DNA from: Clostridia bacterium
GTDB taxonomy: Bacteria > Bacillota > Clostridia > TANB77 > UBA1234
NCBI GenBank assembly: GCA_017469565.1
Contig: JAFUGC010000003.1
Location: forward strand, 13,656-77,655
Reading direction: 5' to 3'
Length of the DNA: 64,000 nucleotides
Shown here: in pieces, positions 10,191-34,877 of the stretch
Layout of the letters: each line of letters starts with the position of its first letter
How positions within the stretch are numbered: the first letter of the stretch is position 1
Translations under genes and position numbers: made by a program
The notes under the pieces: model-generated
The model's database searches: none
Seen by the model: only the letters and a program-made list of their open reading frames with translations
What the model was told of the DNA's origin: nothing

Positions 10191-10316
10191 ACCGTAAAGT
10201 GTGTTTATATGAATGGTGGTCAAGGAAAGACTATGAACCTTGTCAGGTCCGGAAGGAAGCAGCAATAAGTAGATCCTTTTTTGTGATACACCATTCATAT
10301 AAGCGTATTTTACGGT
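10191..10316 (+). ncRNA. ffs: signal recognition particle RNA (small/4.5S-type)
   Basis: Contains the conserved domain IV sequence GTCAGGTCCGGAAGGAAGCAGC. The long closing helix is ACCGTAAAGTGTGTTTATATGAATGGTG...CACCATTCATATAAGCGTATTTTACGGT, followed by a T-run. It sits in the canonical position upstream of dnaX. The 5' end is approximate. Confidence 0.75.
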
Positions 10317-19063: not shown

Positions 19064-19417
19064 TGGTGGAAATGAGGAGAATCGAACTCCTGTCCGAAAA
19101 TTCTTCCATATCAACTTCTCCGAGTGCAGTTTATCTTTTAAAATTCCCATATTTGAAACGCCGATAAACAGGCTTTTCAAAACAGTAACTTGATAAATAC
19201 CCACTATCTCAAAGTTTTGATAGTTTTGTTTCCACTTTTAGATGACGCTTGCACCCAACGAAAGTGGCACATCAGGGCAAACGAAGCCGCAACTAGGCAG
19301 CTAAAGCAACTTTATTGTTGTTAATTATTTTTATTCTCACATTTTTTAGATGGCCAAGTGAGAATCCATCACTCGCTATTGATACTTCTAAATATCCGTC
19401 GAAACCATTACATCCCC
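19064..19417 (-). ncRNA. ssrA: transfer-messenger RNA
   Basis: On the minus strand it reads 5' GGGGATGTAATGGTTTCGAC ... GGAGTTCGATTCTCCTCATTTCCACCA 3'. The internal tag reading frame ends ..AAC AAC AAT AAA GTT GCT TTA GCT GCC TAG (..NNNKVALAA*). Confidence 0.9.
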
Positions 19418-27349: not shown

Positions 27350-27958
27350 GTGATCACCGAAAAGAATAAAGAAAATATCATAAAAGGATTAGAGGCTGAG
27401 CTTGAAAATGGCACATTTTATCAAGTGAATCAGTGGGATGTGCTTGCAAACACTGACACGGATTTTTATCATGATGTTTTTGATTTATCTACATCAAAAA
27501 GTTATGCTACCCCTGAGTTTAAGGGTGTTGGGCTGTTTAGACCGCTTGTAAGTAATGAGTTTAATCCTTTAAATAGCACGGTTTATAATTATAAGGCAAG
27601 CTATGAGGCACCGGTACATGGAATGGCGTTTACTGGTAAGAATGGAGAGTATGTGGAGTCACATTATCTTTCCGGATTGAATTTAGGAGCAAGCATCACC
27701 AATGAGTTTGGTACAGTTACAGTGGAAGCGCCGGTTACTCATATAGATATGAAAATTAATAATATGGGTACGGATGATAATGTTCAAGTAAATATGGCTG
27801 ATATTCTACCAAATACCCAAACTGCTAATGTGATAGATTTTGCATCGGTTCCACAAGAACTTGCACTTGCCAAAAGAAATCATTGGAAAGATATTCTATT
27901 TATGGATGTGGATATTATAGGCAGTGTAAAGAAACTTTGGAAAAATATTTCTGTATAG
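27350..27958 (+). CDS. hypothetical protein
   Basis: 202-aa ORF with a GTG start after AGAGGGGG. No motif recognised. Confidence 0.45.
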   Translation: MITEKNKENIIKGLEAELENGTFYQVNQWDVLANTDTDFYHDVFDLSTSKSYATPEFKGVGLFRPLVSNEFNPLNSTVYNYKASYEAPVHGMAFTGKNGEYVESHYLSGLNLGASITNEFGTVTVEAPVTHIDMKINNMGTDDNVQVNMADILPNTQTANVIDFASVPQELALAKRNHWKDILFMDVDIIGSVKKLWKNISV

Positions 27959-27983: not shown

Positions 27984-28018
27984 AAGTGTGTAAGTGATTT
28001 TACTTACACACTTTTTTT
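27984..28018 (+). terminator. rho-independent terminator
   Basis: AAGTGTGTAAGT-GATTTT-ACTTACACACTT followed by T5. Confidence 0.85.
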
Positions 28019-28148: not shown

Positions 28149-29093
28149 ATGAAAAAGGAGGAATGTTTTTTGAAACGGGATTGTAGACTTATTGCAACGC
28201 TACCTTCATTGAGTAATTTGAAAAAGGTGCAAGAGGTTTTTGAGAGTGATTGTGTAGATGAAGTAAGGTTTAATACGGGAGTGCATGTGCCTTTTGCGGC
28301 GGAAGAAGCGCTGGATATTTTACAAAGGTTGTCACTGAAGTATGATAAGAAACTTTGGATTGATGTGAAGGGCAGGCAGCTTAGGATTAGCAAGTGGGCG
28401 GATCCTTTGTATTCTTGCATTGAACTCAATCACCATGTGGAGGTTTTATATCCGGCAGAGGTTTGTTTTAGAAATGGTGATCGGGTGAGAATTGCCCATA
28501 TCAAAGATGGAAATAAACTTTTTGTGGAACCGCTGCCCAAAGAGGCGCTTGGTGCAGGGCAGTCTGTGAATATTATTGGGAGAGATGTTGAGATTGATGG
28601 TTACTTAACGGAGAAAGATAAAGAGTACTTAACTGCTTGCGCTAAGCTGGGTATGCCTTGGATTATGGCTTCTTTTGTAGAAGAGTTCTTGGATTTCATG
28701 GAGATTTTGACGCTCCAACCGAATGCTCAAATTATGGCTAAAATTGAGTCACTCAAGGGAATGGAGCTTGTGACAAGGCATCCATCTGTACTTATGGAGA
28801 AGTTTAACATTTTTTCTCTAATGGCTGCGAGAGATGACCTGTATATTCAGACAGGTGAAAATTGCAGCATGTTAAAGCATTTGAAAGCAATTGTTGATGT
28901 GGACAGTGGGGCAGTTTGTGCATCCCGGATTTTCCCTTCTTTGGAGAGAAGGCAAACGCCTGAGTTTGCAGATTATGCGGACTTGGAACTCATGTATAGC
29001 ATGGGCTATCGGAGGTTCATGCTGTGTGATAACATATGCAATTACCATTTTGAAAAAGCAATCAAAGCATGGAAGGAGTTTCAGCATGGATAG
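28149..29093 (+). CDS. pyruvate-kinase-like TIM-barrel protein lacking the C-terminal regulatory domain
   Basis: Collinear with PK barrel motifs: RLIATLPS (cf. KIVCTIGP), VRFNTGVH (cf. ARLNFSHG), IDVKGRQLRI (cf. LDTKGPEIR), LTEKDKEYL, IMASFVE (cf. IAASFVR), IMAKIESLKG (cf. IIAKIENQEG), MAARDDL (cf. VARGDLG). The likely true start is TTG 28170, 8 nt after AAGGAGG. Confidence 0.65.
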   Translation: MKKEECFLKRDCRLIATLPSLSNLKKVQEVFESDCVDEVRFNTGVHVPFAAEEALDILQRLSLKYDKKLWIDVKGRQLRISKWADPLYSCIELNHHVEVLYPAEVCFRNGDRVRIAHIKDGNKLFVEPLPKEALGAGQSVNIIGRDVEIDGYLTEKDKEYLTACAKLGMPWIMASFVEEFLDFMEILTLQPNAQIMAKIESLKGMELVTRHPSVLMEKFNIFSLMAARDDLYIQTGENCSMLKHLKAIVDVDSGAVCASRIFPSLERRQTPEFADYADLELMYSMGYRRFMLCDNICNYHFEKAIKAWKEFQHG

Positions 29094-30549
29094 TTATGTA
29101 TTATGTGGAATGCAGTTCGGTGATGAAGGAAAAGGTACGTTTGTTGACTATATGTCACATAGAGAAGACGCGGATGCCGTTGTCCGGTATAACGGAGGTT
29201 CACAGGCATCGCATACGGTGGTGACTCCAAGTGGAACGCTTCATAAGTTTAGTCAGTTAGGTTCCGGAATGTTTTTGGAAAATTGTCACACATATATTAC
29301 GGAAAACACTGTGGTGAACCTGGATAATCTTATGGTGGAGTTGAAGGTTTTTTCGGAAAAAACTGGTATTTCTGTTTCTGAACTCATCAATCGGATTCAC
29401 ATTCATGAGAATTGTTTTGTGGTAACGCCTTATCACAAGCTGCTGAACAAGCTAAGAGAATTGTCATTGGGAGAAAACCGCAGAGGAACGGTTGGCACTG
29501 GTGTGAGTGAGGTCCGGTATGTGTTGGAAGAGTCTCAAAATTTTCCGCTTGAGCCATCCTTAGGGGTTCAAGTAAAAGATATTTTTGATTCTCGTGGTAT
29601 TCGTCCACTCCTTGCTGGTTTCATGGGGCTTCATGAGTATGTGAGTGCGTTCTATCAGGAAAATCAGGAAGTGATTTGGAAAAATACTCCTGAGGAGATG
29701 AAAGAGGGTTTACAGAAAGAGATAGATTCTTTGCTTTCTGGACAAGTTTTTAATCTTACTAACATTTATAGAAGATACTTTAATACGGTACCACGAGAGT
29801 TTAACCTGAAAAGATGTATTTATAGTACTTATGAACAGTCTTTGCACGCAAACTGTAAGAAGGTGATTTTTGAGGGGTCACAGGGACTTTTGATTGATGG
29901 TAAATATGGCATCAAGCCGAATACCACTTTTCTGGATACCACCAATCAGTTTGCTTTGAGGATAAGTAGGTACACGGACCATGTGACAAAGGTTGGTATC
30001 GTGAAGGCTTTTAGCTCTCGGCATGGACCAGGTATATTTCCCACGGAATCAGAGGAAGTGAGCAGTAAGATTCAAGACCCAAATCAGGAGGAATCTTTCT
30101 GGAATGGTAAGATTCGTTTTGGGTGGCTGGATGTGGTGCTGCTCCGGTATGCACAGCACATCAACCAGGTGGATGAGCTTTATTTGTCTTCCTTGGACCT
30201 GCTGGATGATTTTGAGGAACTCAAAATTTGTGTTGGTTATATATACGATGGCAAGGTAGATGAAGAATTCAATCGGACTTTCGAATATGTTGATATGTTG
30301 GACGGTAGGAAGTATATTGATGATATTGTGATGCCCAGTGACAGGCTGGGAGAGTACTTGAAACTTTGCGTTCCGGATTACATGTGCATCAGAGGCTGGA
30401 AGAAGGATATTTCTCAGGTGACTGATCAGGAGGAACTGCCAGTTCGGTGTAGAAATTACATTGGCTGGCTGGGACGTCTTATGAATCTTCCTGTTACGGT
30501 GGTGTCTGTGGGACCTACTCGGGAAAACAAGATACGAATGGATTCTTAG
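29086..30549 (+). CDS. divergent adenylosuccinate synthetase (PurA) family protein
   Basis: Start ATG 29086 (GGAAGGAG RBS) overlaps the upstream stop by 8 nt. PurA motifs present are QFGDEGKG, RYNGGSQASHT, FEGSQGLLID, VKAFSSRHGPGIFPTE, FGWLD, SSLDLLD and VSVGPTRE. The Arg-rich loop before GWLD is degenerate (WNGKIRF). Confidence 0.8.
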   Translation: MDSYVLCGMQFGDEGKGTFVDYMSHREDADAVVRYNGGSQASHTVVTPSGTLHKFSQLGSGMFLENCHTYITENTVVNLDNLMVELKVFSEKTGISVSELINRIHIHENCFVVTPYHKLLNKLRELSLGENRRGTVGTGVSEVRYVLEESQNFPLEPSLGVQVKDIFDSRGIRPLLAGFMGLHEYVSAFYQENQEVIWKNTPEEMKEGLQKEIDSLLSGQVFNLTNIYRRYFNTVPREFNLKRCIYSTYEQSLHANCKKVIFEGSQGLLIDGKYGIKPNTTFLDTTNQFALRISRYTDHVTKVGIVKAFSSRHGPGIFPTESEEVSSKIQDPNQEESFWNGKIRFGWLDVVLLRYAQHINQVDELYLSSLDLLDDFEELKICVGYIYDGKVDEEFNRTFEYVDMLDGRKYIDDIVMPSDRLGEYLKLCVPDYMCIRGWKKDISQVTDQEELPVRCRNYIGWLGRLMNLPVTVVSVGPTRENKIRMDS

Positions 30550-30572: not shown

Positions 30573-31175
30573 ATGAAAGATAAGCTTTATGAAGAGATTG
30601 ACCGGCGTATTACCACTGGTCAAAAGGTGAATGTGCTGATTGCTGGGATGACCTGTTCCGGAAAGAGCACTCTTGCCAGAGAAATTCAGGAGCATTATGT
30701 GTTTGGAAAGCATCCTAAACAGGTGTCTATTATTTCTCAGGATTGTTACTTTAAAAATTTAGGATTGATTCCTAGAAATAAAGGCGGCTATTTGATGGAT
30801 TCTCTTTATGCCTTTCATGCAGATGAGTACCGGGCTCATGCACAGTATCTGACTCAACATGGAACGGTGAGAGTGCCTCAGTATGACATTGCCAGAAATA
30901 AAAGGACGGCGGAATACACTAAAATTGAAAATGGAGATATTAATATCTTTGAGGGTTTGCATAGCATCCGGATATTAAGTGGACTGTGGCATAATGTAAA
31001 AGTCTATTTGGATACTGATGTAGAAACCTGCCTGGAAAGAAGGATTGCAAGGGATACGTCTTTATATGACGTGCCGGAGGAGCGCATTCGTGAGTACTGG
31101 GCGGAGTGTATTATGCCCTTAAGTAGAGAGTTCATTTTCCCGCAAAAGGAAATGGCGGATTGGATTATCAGCTAA
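30573..31175 (+). CDS. uridine kinase / phosphoribulokinase-family P-loop nucleoside kinase
   Basis: Walker A GMTCSGKST, plus SQDCYF, FEGLHS and RRIARDT, collinear with Udk. Confidence 0.75.
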   Translation: MKDKLYEEIDRRITTGQKVNVLIAGMTCSGKSTLAREIQEHYVFGKHPKQVSIISQDCYFKNLGLIPRNKGGYLMDSLYAFHADEYRAHAQYLTQHGTVRVPQYDIARNKRTAEYTKIENGDINIFEGLHSIRILSGLWHNVKVYLDTDVETCLERRIARDTSLYDVPEERIREYWAECIMPLSREFIFPQKEMADWIIS

Positions 31176-31189
31176 AGGGGGAAATGCTT

Positions 31190-32236
31190 ATGACGGTTAA
31201 GGAAATTTATGAAAGGCTGCTGAGGGCCAAACGGCCGGTGGATTTTTTTGGTGAGGCTACCACGGAAGAGGAGCTGAAAAGGTTCTATAAGGATTTTGCC
31301 AAAAAGGTTCATCCGGATTTAGTGCCTGACTGTGACAGGTATCTTGCCGGTGAGGCGTTTTCTGTGCTGAATAGACTTTATCATTTGGGTCTTGCTGAGT
31401 TCCAACAGGGCATTTATGGCGTAATTGACCAGGTGCAACTGTATTCGCATCAGTCGCCGCTGTTTGAAATCACGGCTGGAGGAAAGCGGTATCAGTTTTT
31501 TGAGAATGTGTTTGAAGGCGAGGTTGCCTATCTTTTTAAGGGGAAGTCGGCCGATGATGATATTGTGTATCTGAAAGTAGCGATTGACCCAGCAGACAAT
31601 GAACTGATTGACACGGAGTATGATGTGCTTTCCACGCTTAGGCATCAGTCTTTTCCATATGTGGAACAGAAAATTCAGGTGAATGATACCAGGGCCATTT
31701 TGATGCGAGAGGTGAAGGGCATTACTATGCTGGAGCTTTTGGAGCAATATCCGCATGGTGTGCCTGCAGAGCATGTGATGTGGATGCTGGAGCGCCTGCT
31801 GAGTGCTGTGGGGTATCTGCATGCTAACTTTGTGGTGCATGGGAATATCAAGCCGGAAAATATCATCATTAACAAGGAAAATCATAATGTTTCCTTGGTT
31901 GGTTTTTCTTTCTGTATTCCTAAGGCGAATACCCCAGAGGCAAAGTACAAGATTCAAAATGATAATTATTCTGCTCCTGAGGTAAGTGCGGATGCCACGG
32001 TTTATCCGGCATCGGATGTATATTCGGTTGGCAAAATTGCGATTGCGCTTTTAGGAGGTGCCGTTTCTTCTTCTGGAATGCCCATTTCCGTGAATGCGAA
32101 AGTGAGGGCGTTTATCCGGAAAATGGTGAATCCTTCTATGATGGATAGACCAGACGATGCCTGGAAACTCTGGACGGAGCTGATTGAGCTCAGAACGGAA
32201 GTTTTTGGAACTCAGCGGTTTCAAAAATTGGACTGA
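31190..32236 (+). CDS. J-domain protein fused to a Ser/Thr-kinase-fold pseudokinase
   Basis: J-domain with the HPD tripeptide (FAKKVHPDL). The kinase fold has VYLKVAI (beta3 Lys), SAPEV and SDVYSVG, but the catalytic loop reads VHGNIKPEN (HRD Asp replaced by Asn) and the DFG position reads VGFSF (Asp lost). Start ATG 31190 is 8 nt after AAGGGGG. Confidence 0.75.
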   Translation: MTVKEIYERLLRAKRPVDFFGEATTEEELKRFYKDFAKKVHPDLVPDCDRYLAGEAFSVLNRLYHLGLAEFQQGIYGVIDQVQLYSHQSPLFEITAGGKRYQFFENVFEGEVAYLFKGKSADDDIVYLKVAIDPADNELIDTEYDVLSTLRHQSFPYVEQKIQVNDTRAILMREVKGITMLELLEQYPHGVPAEHVMWMLERLLSAVGYLHANFVVHGNIKPENIIINKENHNVSLVGFSFCIPKANTPEAKYKIQNDNYSAPEVSADATVYPASDVYSVGKIAIALLGGAVSSSGMPISVNAKVRAFIRKMVNPSMMDRPDDAWKLWTELIELRTEVFGTQRFQKLD

Positions 32237-32292: not shown

Positions 32293-33243
32293 ATGGGTGG
32301 AAGCAGCTATGACCGGGATGTGTACAGTGGTAGCTCTAGTTCAGGCTGGGGTGCTAGTTCTTATTCAGCAATGAAGATGGGCAGTAGCACTTTGGATAGC
32401 TCCCTGAGGGCTAATGGTAAGATTCTGAAAAGTACAAGCAAGAATCCTATTATTGTGGTGCTGGATGTGACTGGCTCCAACATTGATTTTGCCAGATTGG
32501 TTTATGACAAGATGCCGATGTTTTATGGGCAGATTGAGCAGAAGGGGTATTTGGATGACTTTGATATTGCTTTTTGTGCGGTGGGTGATGCCTACACGGA
32601 TGATTATCCTTTGCAGATAGGTGATTTTGCAAAGGGGATTGCTTTGGACTCCCAACTGGAAAAGTTAGTGCTGGAGGGTGCTGGCGGAGGCCAGAGGAAG
32701 GAGTCTTACGAGCTTGCCGCTTATTATCTGTATAAGAATGCGGAGTTTCCACCGGGCAGTAAGCCTCTCATCTTCTTTATTGGAGATGAGGCACCTTATC
32801 CTAAGGTGAATGAGGTTCAGGCTCAGGAGTTTGGCATTGACTGCACTGAAGGTAATGTGGAGCCTTTTGAGCTTTTGCGGAAGAAGGTAAATGACAATGT
32901 CTTTATGCTCTTGAACAAGTATTGCAGTAGGAGTTTTGAAAGTGACATTACAGAGGCGTGGACCACGCGGTTGGCGCCAGAACATGTGATTAAGATTCAG
33001 GAGGAAAAGGCGATTGTGGACCTGATGCTGGGCATTATCTCCATGGTTTCGAATGCGAGAACGCTAGAGACTTATAAGGTGGATATGCTGGATAGAGGGC
33101 AGACACAGGAGCGGATTGCCGGTGTTTCGGAATCGCTTCAGAATTTTTCAAAGGTCACATCGATTGTGCCTGTGAAGGTGTCTGGGATAATTCCCAAGGC
33201 TTCCGGTGGGAAGCAAAGCACTCAGAAGGGCAAACGCCTGTAA
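32293..33243 (+). CDS. von Willebrand factor A (vWA) domain protein
   Basis: MIDAS-like IIVVLDVTGS, later FFIGDEAPY, and the beta-alpha-beta periodicity of vWA. TAAGGAGGAA RBS. Confidence 0.7.
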   Translation: MGGSSYDRDVYSGSSSSGWGASSYSAMKMGSSTLDSSLRANGKILKSTSKNPIIVVLDVTGSNIDFARLVYDKMPMFYGQIEQKGYLDDFDIAFCAVGDAYTDDYPLQIGDFAKGIALDSQLEKLVLEGAGGGQRKESYELAAYYLYKNAEFPPGSKPLIFFIGDEAPYPKVNEVQAQEFGIDCTEGNVEPFELLRKKVNDNVFMLLNKYCSRSFESDITEAWTTRLAPEHVIKIQEEKAIVDLMLGIISMVSNARTLETYKVDMLDRGQTQERIAGVSESLQNFSKVTSIVPVKVSGIIPKASGGKQSTQKGKRL

Positions 33244-33253
33244 GATGAATTTT

Positions 33254-33287
33254 GGTGGTACACTTATTTTAGTGTACCACCTTTTTT
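33254..33287 (+). terminator. rho-independent terminator ending the five-gene operon
   Basis: GGTGGTACAC-TTATTTTA-GTGTACCACC followed by T6. Confidence 0.85.
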
Positions 33288-33329: not shown

Positions 33330-33358
33330 TTGACATAATGATGGGCAAAATATATAAT
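33330..33358 (+). promoter_or_regulatory. consensus sigma-A promoter for the 473-aa orphan
   Basis: TTGACA - 17 nt - TATAAT. Confidence 0.7.
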
Positions 33359-33410: not shown

Positions 33411-34832
33411 ATGGGTATTCGAAACTGGTTAAACCGCAGGCGTGAGATGGAAGACGGACTGGATGATGCGGCTGTTACTAGTTCAACTGGTTCAACCACT
33501 TCAACCGCTTCAACCGTGAATGACACTTCTTGTCATGTGAAGGTTCCCGAGAAGGTGGAGAATCTTCCGCAGATAGAGCGTGAGGCACTTTACCGGTGGA
33601 GCAAAGTGTTTTTGGGAGAAGTGGCGAGTGCAGATTATACCAAGCGGTTTGTGAAGTCCCTGAATATCAGCCCGTATCATATGGGAGATACTTATTGGAA
33701 TGTTAAACAGGAAGAAATGGAAAGGATTGGCTGTCTGACGGAGTGCTACCGGGCGTGCATCAGCAGAGTCTTTGCAGAGAATAATTTTCTGGCCGGCCCT
33801 GAGATGCTGGAAGAACTCATACGGGTTGTCACGGCAAATCTGGTAAGTCGCATGCTTCAGGAAACAGATATCACTTATGATTATGATCTGTCTGAGTATG
33901 AGAAAGAGATTTTTCAGTTTGGTTCAGAGCTTTTGAAGGCGGTTTATTGGGTGGCCACCGAGAATGTGGTGGATTTTGTTAGTCTTTACGAGAAAATCAA
34001 TCACGGTATTGATTTCAGGCTGAAAAGCATGTATGGGCCGGAGATTACATACCGGTATACTTACCTTATTCCGGCGGAGTATCTGTTTGAACTTCCTGAT
34101 TTTGTTTATGAAAAGAGATTGGGCAGTATTCAAGACAGGATGGAGGCTGTTCATGATGTGGAAGCCATCATTAGTGGAGTTCTTTCTCGGGATAATGATA
34201 TTGGTGATGGCGCAGTATACCTTTCCAAGCTTAAGGAATTCATGATAAAAGAAAAGGAGTTTCTGACACTGGATTTTGAGCATATTCTGTTCCAGTATTT
34301 TGAAGAGTTTAAAGAGGAGAACGAATTAACGTCCTATAACTTTTATGCTTATGGGATACATGACCTGATTGCTGCTATTCCGCAATATTTCCCGGAAATG
34401 ATTGTGGAGTCTTTTGAGTATCAGCTGGCAATGATGCAGCGTGTTTATGTATGCCAAGATGAAGTGGAGATGTTTGAAGAGGATCTGGTGGATCTGTATG
34501 AACGCATCGTCATTTATCGGAATTATAGAGCGGAAGATTTTCAGGTAACTGATTCTGATTCCTGGAAAGCAACTATTAGTAGTTTTTTTGAACTGGGGCT
34601 TTCGGGGTATGCACTGACCAGAATTTCGGATTTGCTCACGGATGGTTTAGGCGTGAGCAGAGATGAAGTGGAAGCGTACATTGAGAGTCTGACCCGGGAT
34701 TATTTGGATGATTGCTACTGGATTGGTACGGATGAGGAGAGCCTCATTCATATGATTCGGCTGCTGTCTAATCCTGTTGTTTACCGTGTGATTGAAGAAG
34801 AGAAGCCGGCCATCATTGACTGCTTCTGGTAA
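33411..34832 (+). CDS. hypothetical acidic, probably all-helical protein (473 aa) linked to the island
   Basis: AAGGAGG RBS. It has the same GC-rich composition and CGG usage as the preceding operon. It has an S/T-rich linker near the N-terminus and no recognisable motif. Confidence 0.55.
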   Translation: MGIRNWLNRRREMEDGLDDAAVTSSTGSTTSTASTVNDTSCHVKVPEKVENLPQIEREALYRWSKVFLGEVASADYTKRFVKSLNISPYHMGDTYWNVKQEEMERIGCLTECYRACISRVFAENNFLAGPEMLEELIRVVTANLVSRMLQETDITYDYDLSEYEKEIFQFGSELLKAVYWVATENVVDFVSLYEKINHGIDFRLKSMYGPEITYRYTYLIPAEYLFELPDFVYEKRLGSIQDRMEAVHDVEAIISGVLSRDNDIGDGAVYLSKLKEFMIKEKEFLTLDFEHILFQYFEEFKEENELTSYNFYAYGIHDLIAAIPQYFPEMIVESFEYQLAMMQRVYVCQDEVEMFEEDLVDLYERIVIYRNYRAEDFQVTDSDSWKATISSFFELGLSGYALTRISDLLTDGLGVSRDEVEAYIESLTRDYLDDCYWIGTDEESLIHMIRLLSNPVVYRVIEEEKPAIIDCFW

Positions 34833-34841
34833 GAATTTTGT

Positions 34842-34877
34842 GGTGGAGGAAAACTTGTTTCCTCCGCCATTTTTTTG
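34842..34877 (+). terminator. rho-independent terminator
   Basis: GGTGGAGGAAAC-TT-GTTTCCTCCGCC followed by ATTTTTTT. Confidence 0.85.

Follow-up and report, generated by a model that had tools for sequence, protein, structure and literature searches.

The stretch of DNA analysed here (the window) comprises 64,000 nucleotides of a Clostridia bacterium genome (GenBank assembly GCA_017469565.1, contig JAFUGC010000003.1), and our subject is a gene at its positions 29086-30549 on the + strand, which encodes an intact, ATG-initiated protein of 487 amino acids (aa) that belongs to the adenylosuccinate synthetase (PurA) family by Pfam match, fold and alignment. An earlier note on this DNA had described the gene without its context: it is the second gene of a tightly packed five-gene operon on the + strand, located between terminators, in the order mini pyruvate-kinase-like (PK-like), PurA-like, uridine-kinase-like (Udk-like), J-domain pseudokinase and von Willebrand factor A (vWA) protein. 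The PurA-like start overlaps the 3' end of the PK-like gene by 8 nt. Upstream, a terminator-like hairpin (27984-28013, + strand; a 13-bp stem followed by a T-run) ends a 202-aa open reading frame (ORF) and marks the operon boundary; downstream, another such hairpin (33254-33281, + strand; an 11-bp stem with 6 GC pairs and a T-run) lies 11 nt past the stop codon of the vWA gene. The operon is the highest-GC 5-kb stretch of the window (0.437 versus a mean of 0.364 with a standard deviation of 0.029), and the GC content at third codon positions is 0.42-0.53 in its five genes, compared with 0.29-0.38 in the flanking clpC and ffh genes. Both flanks are housekeeping regions, with ctsR-mcsA-mcsB-clpC upstream and ylxM-ffh-rpsP-rimM-trmD-rplS downstream. 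An Rfam search for a riboswitch or leader 5' of the operon gave only weak terminator-like matches.

Judged by its sequence, the PurA-like protein is a divergent relative of adenylosuccinate synthetase that keeps the catalytic core and has lost the residues that hold aspartate. The Pfam model PF00709 (Adenylsucc_synt) spans residues 5-482 with 269 bits (E 8e-80), and the best solved relatives are bacterial PurAs, such as that of B. anthracis (4M0G, E 2e-46). An AlphaFold2 model, computed with 40 homologues in the alignment, reached a predicted local distance difference test score (pLDDT) of 91.4 and matched full-length bacterial and eukaryotic PurA structures in Foldseek with target-normalised template modelling (TM) scores of 0.79-0.87 at 22-28% identity. 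Structures of PurZ, DgsS and PurZ0 took ranks 34-43, the last among the significant matches and behind all PurAs, at 11-15% identity. The earlier note had brought up the phage PurZ paralogues; by structure the protein stands much nearer to PurA than to PurZ/DgsS, and the NCBIfam PurZ model NF038379 scored 51.2 bits against a cut-off of 300 and covered only the N-terminal 114 residues. The protein also falls under the cut-offs of the NCBIfam PurA equivalogs (NF002223, 234.8 versus 402 bits; TIGR00184, 213.4 versus 395.55 bits) and matches PHROG 1211 ('2-aminooxy adenylosuccinate synthetase') with 235 bits. A search of 5.8 billion proteins returned 575 matches, the best 120 of which are 450-527 aa long, 44-65% identical and either without a name or automatically named. 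Six contigs of independent assemblies carry an identical protein, named 'MAG: adenylosuccinate synthetase [Clostridia bacterium]' (MAG, metagenome-assembled genome).

The motifs that the earlier note had listed (QFGDEGKG, GGSQASHT, GTVGTGVSE, FEGSQG, GIFPTE, SLDLLD and SVGPTRE, together with the loop in the GWLD region) were all found and are collinear with PurA. The E. coli strings it gave were correct, as MG1655 PurA reads GTTGRGIGP and TTGRRRRTGWLD, and the approximately 55 extra residues are exactly the difference between 487 aa and the 432 aa of E. coli PurA. For residue mapping, a single alignment combined MG1655 PurA, a phage homologue and 40 members of the clade; positions are numbered as in the E. 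coli literature, and residues of the window protein follow in brackets. The P-loop QFGDEGKG (residues 10-17; 29113-29136, + strand, as for all motifs below) contains the equivalents of the catalytic Asp13 and Lys16, and GGSQASHT (residues 37-44; 29194-29217) places His43 at the catalytic His41, with Gln40 for Asn38 and Ser42 for Gly40. FEGSQG, SLDLLD and SVGPTRE occupy residues 262-267, 369-374 and 474-480, respectively. Kept in the protein are Asp13, Lys16, Gly17, His41 (His43), Gln224 (Gln266), which in PurA reads the 6-oxo group, Thr239 (Thr281), Arg306 (Arg344), Asp311, the guanine-binding Asp333 (Asp371) and Ser414/Gly416 of the S-x-G-P motif.

Both loops that the earlier note had singled out as altered proved to be so. 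The IMP (inosine monophosphate) 5'-phosphate loop, GTVGTGVSE (residues 134-142; 29485-29511), is remodelled by T129V, R131T, G134S and P135E. The aspartate loop, SFWNGKIRFGWLD (residues 337-349; 30094-30132), carries T300F, T301W (Trp339), G302N, R303G (Gly341, or a deletion of this residue, by alignment) and R305I (Ile343); Thr301, Arg303 and Arg305 are gone, and the equivalent of Arg306 (Arg344) is the sole survivor. Three changes extend the earlier list: N38Q, V273H (His313, within SRHGPGIFPTE, residues 311-321; 30016-30048, which contains GIFPTE at 316-321) and the absence of an Arg at the position of Arg143, the residue that completes the PurA active site across the dimer. Lys331 is furthermore replaced by Ser. 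Among the IMP 5'-phosphate ligands Asn38, Thr129, Thr239 and Arg143', only Thr239 (Thr281) remains. The possibility that careful alignment would reveal the aspartate- and IMP-binding residues to be conserved after all, which the earlier note had allowed for, did not hold, as the aspartate ligands and most IMP-phosphate ligands are replaced.

A census of 110 non-canonical sequences (36 from bacterial cassettes, 67 of the phage-type trio and 7 of the myxobacterial type) and seven canonical PurAs (E. coli, Acinetobacter, Listeria, Staphylococcus, Aquihabitans and two viral or metagenomic sequences) gave the same picture. Asp13, Lys16, His41 and Gln224 never vary (110/110 non-canonical and 7/7 canonical proteins), Thr239 is Thr in 109/110 of the non-canonical set, and Asp333 is kept in 107/110. 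Position 38, in contrast, is Gln in 104/110 non-canonical proteins and Asn in 7/7 canonical ones, and position 273 is His in 110/110 versus Val in 7/7. Arg303 is missing from all 110 but present in all seven, the Arg143 position holds Arg in 0/110 versus 7/7, and position 129 is Val or Cys in 106/110 versus Thr in 7/7. Position 305 is mostly hydrophobic (~105/110) where canonical PurAs have Arg (7/7), and the canonical proteins retain Thr301, Arg303 and Arg305 without exception (7/7 for all three). By alignment, the replacement of the aspartate and IMP-phosphate ligands is a fixed, clade-wide pattern.

The earlier note had suggested placing the protein in a phylogeny. In a neighbour-joining tree of 117 sequences and 386 columns, the PurA-like protein falls outside canonical PurA, and all non-canonical sequences sit on a single long branch apart from the canonical PurAs. 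The split is also supported independently by signature residues, namely G-G-[SAP]-Q-A, R-H-G and [WFY]-[NQ]-G-x-[hydrophobic]-R-x-G, to which the window protein conforms with GGSQA, SRHG and FWNGKIRFG. The non-canonical branch divides into a 'five-gene cassette' sub-clade, which includes the window protein, and a 'phage trio' sub-clade; Myxococcales and Pseudomonadota MAGs contribute a further non-canonical sub-clade, without J-pseudokinase or vWA partners. This last form reads GGPQAAHH and NPWQGPMRVGWFD and is encoded directly 3' of a gene for a 196-aa PAS protein (locus L036, 4710-8398; locus L038, 3992-7736); in the same two loci, a divergently transcribed HAMP-PP2C phosphatase gene adjoins the PurA-like gene. 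The enzyme signature thus also occurs in a second, signalling-type setting, and partners of a signalling type recur.

Scanning one genome per GTDB species yielded 40 PurA-like loci, the ORFs of which were then compared with the window proteins. All 27 loci at 37-66% identity (27/27) hold the five genes in identical order wherever the contig allows, in hosts comprising Clostridia, Ruminococcaceae, Lachnospiraceae, Oscillospiraceae, uncultured Bacilli, 'Tenericutes', Muribaculaceae and Ignavibacteriales MAGs. Metagenome loci of diverse homologues repeat the set (PK-like, PurA-like, PRK-like, kinase and a ~320-aa unknown protein, in this sequence) with different flanking genes each time, and in two related genomes the cassette occupies one shared chromosomal site. 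Melainabacteria and Polyangiales MAGs carry the trio in phage order, and one clade member lies on a 7-Mb Obscuribacter contig. Two contigs with the five-gene form (L130 and L131) look phage-like: their small ORFs are unidirectional, and they encode a primase Zn-ribbon as well as an RNase H-like protein and an RNA ligase. Directly 5' of the PK-like gene, both also encode a ~545-aa protein with a PF04127 'DFP' (CoaB-like ligase) domain (L130, 6374-8011; L131, 5554-7194), which may be an extra component of the module. In an Ignavibacteriales MAG (L003, 11034-12020, on the same contig as L019), the cassette vWA gene is divided into two ORFs, for which a frameshift, a pseudogene and an assembly error are all conceivable explanations.

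In large phages, a smaller version of the module, the core trio of J-pseudokinase, vWA and PurA-like genes, is widespread. Tblastn searches of GenBank phages with the PurA-like and vWA proteins matched the same sets (~202 Mycobacterium, 10 Rhizobium and 6 Vibrio phages), and the module is present in all cluster C mycobacteriophages searched. In QBert (Bixzunavirus, cluster C), the adjacent gp253 ('serine/threonine kinase'), gp254 ('hypothetical') and gp255 ('PurA-like adenylosuccinate synthetase') are homologous to window genes 4, 5 and 2 at 27%, 32% and 30% identity, respectively; the QBert trio and the window proteins have in common the HPD motif (gp253, locus L006, 5772-6845) and the W-x-G-K-[IF]-R loop. 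In Vibrio phage Va1 (195 kb) and Rhizobium phage RHph_TM30 (208 kb), the vWA gene adjoins an 'adenylosuccinate synthase'. The RHph_TM30 protein, gp019 (L140, 4525-5775), is a trio-type PurA-like protein beside a vWA gene and is labelled '2-aminooxy adenylosuccinate synthetase' (PHROG 1211), a family that seems to lump PurZ with the unrelated non-canonical PurA-like clade. Among the best 80 IMG/VR loci, many of them on contigs of 100-500 kb, the vWA gene is next to the PurA-like gene in ~70 and the J-kinase gene is there too in ~60; the PK-like gene occurs in two and a canonical PurA in only one. No IMG/VR homologue exceeds 40% identity to the window PurA-like protein, the viral relatives being 25-33% identical, and clustering the neighbours in 63 non-redundant viral loci found nothing beyond the trio that is conserved in more than 9 loci. 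Full-text literature searching turned up no description of the clade or the module; mentions were confined to genome announcements, where 'PurA-like adenylosuccinate synthetase' and 'serine/threonine kinase' figure as conserved genes of C1 mycobacteriophages (PMC9476963).

Gene 1, the mini PK-like gene (28170-29093, + strand; 307 aa), begins with a TTG start at 28170, preceded by AAGGAGG, and encodes only an A-domain barrel, most of the B domain and the whole C domain being absent. Its product scores 40.6 bits against PF00224 (gathering threshold, 30) and 40.8 bits against the pyruvate kinase equivalog TIGR01064 (cut-off, 306), and lacks the full pyruvate kinase architecture. In the PDB, a profile of this cassette-specific family (390 homologues of ~299 aa) matches nothing but pyruvate kinases (E 2e-11). 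The pyruvate kinase catalytic Lys and both metal ligands (K-I-E-S, A-R-D-D-L), R-x-N and D-x-K-G-x-x-x-R are invariant in 25 gene 1 homologues; the window protein reads M-L-C-D-N-I where pyruvate kinase has M-L-S-G-E-T. Gene 3 (30573-31175, + strand; 200 aa) encodes a uridine/cytidine-kinase-like P-loop nucleoside kinase (Pfam PRK, 63 bits; NCBIfam udk, 99 bits against a cut-off of 180) that aligns end to end with human UCK2 (E 6e-16) and Udk and has the catalytic Asp. Its family has a conserved Asn at the position of UCK2 His117, which we take to be the base-reading residue. The PDB chain 'Uridine kinase P10' (9y3v chain K, 9y4b, 9y4w) is also among the relatives of gene 3 (E 2e-9).

Gene 4 (31190-32236, + strand; 348 aa) combines a J domain (HPD at residues 41-43) with a protein-kinase fold whose catalytic loop reads H-G-N (217-219). 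In the PDB, a profile of the N-terminal 75 aa found little other than J domains (best E 4e-5), aligned across helix II, HPD and helix III, whereas the single-sequence Pfam DnaJ score was 21 bits versus a gathering threshold of 27.8; 29/34 bacterial homologues have HPD, as do 42/43 of the viral ones that were aligned. The remainder of the protein has the protein-kinase fold (E 5e-18), and the bacterial set keeps the beta3 Lys and the alphaC Glu. The catalytic-loop Asp is missing in 33/34 bacterial (Asn in 30, Ala in 3) and 51/51 viral homologues, and the DFG Asp is Gly in 21/34 bacterial ones. As the catalytic Asp is lost family-wide (H-G-N/A) and the N-terminus is a J domain with HPD, we predict a pseudokinase and Hsp70 co-chaperone rather than a 'serine/threonine kinase', and the current phage annotations are probably wrong. 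The phage-like contig L130 (10500-12164) encodes a single 554-aa fusion of the Udk-like protein and the J-pseudokinase, which supports a physical association of the two. Gene 5 (32293-33243, + strand; 316 aa) has no Pfam match and belongs to PHROG 2971 ('unknown function'); it shows the Rossmann-like vWA fold with a metal-ion-dependent adhesion site (MIDAS) of the form D-x-S/T-x-S ... D, here D58-x-T60-x-S62, and its family numbers at least 1,100 clusters at 50% identity. The vWA N-terminus, MGGxSYDRDVYS, is invariant yet disordered (pLDDT <50) in the window protein and in homologues from loci L048-L127, and most homologues, whether of gut bacteria or of phages, have a C-terminal tail with ...R-L as its last residues. 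These terminal segments look like docking or substrate peptides.

Taken together, we favour the reading that the PurA-like protein is an active, non-canonical ligase of a phage-derived module and not a housekeeping enzyme, with a probability of roughly 0.6. Its machinery is conserved, its ligands are replaced clade-wide, it scores below the equivalog cut-offs and it belongs to a separate clade, all of which argues for a changed acceptor and/or nucleotide. The proposal of the earlier note, phosphoryl activation retained but applied to a different substrate, stands in so far as the catalytic residues vary little or not at all across the 110 sequences and the acceptor and phosphate ligands are replaced; its analogy to PurZ is conceptual only. 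In the mechanism we propose, the enzyme would use GTP to phosphorylate O6 of a 6-oxopurine nucleoside or nucleotide, as inferred from Asp13, His41 and Gln224, for which we know of no other role in the PurA fold from established PurA enzymology. An amine other than free L-aspartate would then displace the phosphate to give an adenine-type nucleotide, either N6-substituted or re-aminated. The missing Thr129 and Arg143, along with an invariant Glu142, suggest another mode of reading the 5'-phosphate, and the substrate could be a nucleoside, deoxy or polyphosphate form. Within the five-gene cassette, the Udk-like enzyme might supply or phosphorylate the nucleoside, the PK-like enzyme might regenerate GTP from GDP with phosphoenolpyruvate (PEP) or raise the product to the triphosphate, and the vWA protein and J-domain pseudokinase could, as a scaffold or switch without catalysis of its own, link the enzyme to the DnaK/Hsp70 of the host. 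Any specific substrate assignment within this scheme is doubtful. The module was probably acquired horizontally from phages, and its role may lie either in a bacterial benefit, for example against phages, or in phage take-over or counter-defence.

Several other accounts share part of this evidence. A PurZ-type enzyme that joins dGMP and aspartate for 2-aminoadenine (Z) DNA would fit the PHROG 1211 match (235 bits) and the PurZ label on the trio-type homologue of RHph_TM30, but is effectively refuted: NF038379 reaches 51 bits of 300 over the N-terminal 114 residues only, structural identity is 11-15% versus 22-28% to full-length PurA, the aspartate ligands shared by PurZ and PurA are missing, and the operon contains no DatZ-, MazZ- or DpoZ-like genes. 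Hidden Markov model score and structure alike ruled out PurZ membership. It is also quite improbable that the gene is the divergent housekeeping adenylosuccinate synthetase of its host, acting on IMP, aspartate and GTP with other residues binding aspartate. All catalytic residues are intact, databases call the protein 'adenylosuccinate synthetase', and several host lineages are uncultured gut bacteria with maybe reduced purine metabolism; however, 235 and 213 bits fall far from the equivalog cut-offs of 402 and 395.55, and Thr129, Arg143, Thr301, Arg303 and Arg305, kept in 7/7 canonical PurAs, are all gone. Moreover, the gene never lies beside pur genes but in a five-gene cassette with varied flanks and foreign GC, and the clade also occurs in phages whose hosts have their own purA (M. 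smegmatis phages) and on the 7-Mb Obscuribacter contig.

Alternatively, the PurA fold could have been exapted as a non-enzymatic GTP-binding switch or scaffold, or could interfere with host PurA. PurA is a P-loop NTPase of the SIMIBI class, which includes many dimer switches, the dimer-completing Arg143 is missing in 110/110 sequences, and the vWA and J-domain pseudokinase partners are of non-catalytic adaptor types. We nevertheless consider this very unlikely, as strict Asp13, His41, Gln224 and Thr239, together with the new His313, Trp/Phe339 and Gln40, fit selection on a substrate pocket, and the gene is tightly coupled to two nucleotide enzymes with intact catalytic residues. An unlikely account, though one compatible with the enzymology we favour, is that of a phage-derived, domesticated anti-phage system of the abortive-infection type, in which the vWA protein and J-pseudokinase would sense infection and free the PurA-like enzyme, fed by the PK-like and Udk-like enzymes, to deplete GTP/IMP or make a toxic or signalling purine nucleotide. 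The compact, self-contained mobile operon with unrelated flanks and foreign GC would suit such a system, as would homologous modules in phages, which are common for defence and counter-defence genes, and the shared chromosomal site in two related genomes, suggesting a host benefit. The kinase-fold domain resembles the PADLOC defence kinases PD-T4-6, MkoA and MAD6 (E 1e-18 to 6e-22), and pairs of vWA and kinase proteins are known from the TerY-P defence triad. Yet the kinase lacks the catalytic Asp, unlike PD-T4-6/Stk2-type effectors, the neighbours in the examined loci are mostly housekeeping genes and not defence islands, and the core trio resides mostly in lytic large phages, so a benefit to the phage is at least as strongly indicated.

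The favoured reading of an active, non-canonical ligase in a phage-derived module must itself be set against a number of observations that weigh on the other side. The tree was built without bootstrap and with only seven canonical outgroups. No canonical purA is found within the 64-kb window, a point that also speaks for the housekeeping account, and all bacterial hosts are uncultured MAGs, some in reduced-genome lineages. A carboxylate site might be re-created by Arg344 and Asn340 together with the invariant His313, so that aspartate use is conceivable. The roles given to the PK-like and Udk-like enzymes are drawn from family membership only, and the two are accessory, since the phage trio lacks them. 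Finally, the PurA-like, PK-like and vWA proteins all went unmatched by PADLOC models, which counts against the anti-phage account as well.

With these points in mind, we regard the PurA-like clade as a putative further functional branch of the PurA superfamily, the third after PurA and PurZ, residing in an apparently undescribed module of three to five genes. A more far-reaching version is tentative: the enzyme might catalyse a new reaction, the GTP-driven transfer of a non-aspartate nucleophile onto C6 of a 6-oxopurine nucleoside or nucleotide, and the trio might be a widespread, undescribed device for phage take-over or counter-defence. The nucleophile could be ammonia or the amine of another metabolite; an amine on a protein or peptide is a further candidate, one example being the invariant Gly-Gly N-terminus of the vWA partner. 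The trio could serve to restore adenine nucleotides after host deaminase-type immunity or, alternatively, to produce a novel nucleotide, signalling or modified, with DnaK in control. Some gut bacteria would have taken up the trio and added the PK-like and Udk-like enzymes to it. For a long time, PurA was regarded as a family with a single reaction; PurZ then showed that an offshoot in phages can rewrite DNA chemistry. The clade described here would be a second offshoot, much larger than PurZ, with a fixed acceptor pocket unlike that of PurA and an obligate genomic link to a chaperone-recruiting pseudokinase and a vWA protein. If a new nucleotide or the re-amination of inosine nucleotides were indeed involved, this would be a reaction new to purine metabolism and a new layer in the phage-host conflict over nucleotide pools. 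The module genes are currently labelled 'adenylosuccinate synthetase', 'PurZ-like', 'serine/threonine kinase' and 'pyruvate kinase', labels that distort metabolic reconstructions of gut MAGs and the annotation of phage auxiliary genes.

Around the operon, the 202-aa ORF (27350-27958) and a 473-aa ORF (33411-34832) were considered as cassette members and rejected, as they have their own promoter and terminator and are missing from all other loci. The 473-aa ORF encodes an acidic orphan protein, is preceded by a perfect TTGACA-17-TATAAT promoter (33330-33358) and is followed by its own terminator (34840-34870). Its GC content (0.437) equals that of the cassette, and it may have been acquired together with it; its product has no match in Pfam, NCBIfam, PHROGs or PADLOC, and the ORF does not lie beside the cassette in other loci. 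Elsewhere in the window are a transfer-messenger RNA (tmRNA) gene (19064-19417, - strand; Rfam, 160 bits), for which ARAGORN gives an atypical tag, VETKLSKL*, whose resume codon may be mis-set, and a small bacterial signal recognition particle RNA (10211-10299, + strand; Rfam, 56 bits), with ffh (35284-36711) in the same window.

Known systems share some features with the cassette and differ in others. The PK-like protein keeps the catalytic Lys and metal ligands of pyruvate kinase but, at ~300 aa, consists of the A domain only, and the Udk-like protein aligns over its full length with UCK2/Udk but scores 99 against 180 bits and has Asn for His117. The TerY-P triad (TerY vWA, Ser/Thr kinase and PP2C; a phospho-switch or anti-phage system) likewise pairs a cytoplasmic MIDAS vWA protein with a kinase-fold protein, and a distant PurA-like sub-clade adjoins a PP2C phosphatase; in contrast, the window cassette has no phosphatase, its vWA protein has no PADLOC match and its kinase fold lacks the catalytic Asp. 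To our knowledge, the TerY-P triad contains no PurA-like enzyme. Identity with TerY-P or PD-T4-6-type systems was rejected, because only the kinase fold matches PADLOC (PD-T4-6/MkoA/MAD6), with its catalytic Asp missing, and the vWA protein is unmatched. PurZ/DgsS/PurZ0 (N6-succino-2-amino-2'-deoxyadenylate synthase) resembles the window clade as a phage-associated offshoot of the PurA superfamily with altered specificity and a place in PHROG 1211. PurZ is a short form of ~340 aa that still uses aspartate, through ligands shared with PurA, and the window operon is without Z-genome companion genes. Canonical PurA (EC 6.3.4.4; E. coli 1ADE/1CG0, B. anthracis 4M0G) shares the fold over its full length, the P-loop, the Asp/His pair, Gln224, Thr239, Asp333 and S-x-G-P, whereas the window protein has Thr129, Arg131, Arg143, Val273, Thr300/301, Arg303 and Arg305 replaced, carries ~55 extra residues and stands in an entirely different gene context. 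The cluster C mycobacteriophage protein, QBert gp255, has the non-canonical signature in common with it (GGSQA, RHG and W-Q/N-G-x-F/I-R-x-G-x-L-D), but is encoded in the order pseudokinase-vWA-PurA-like, without PK-like and Udk-like genes, and falls in the sister sub-clade.

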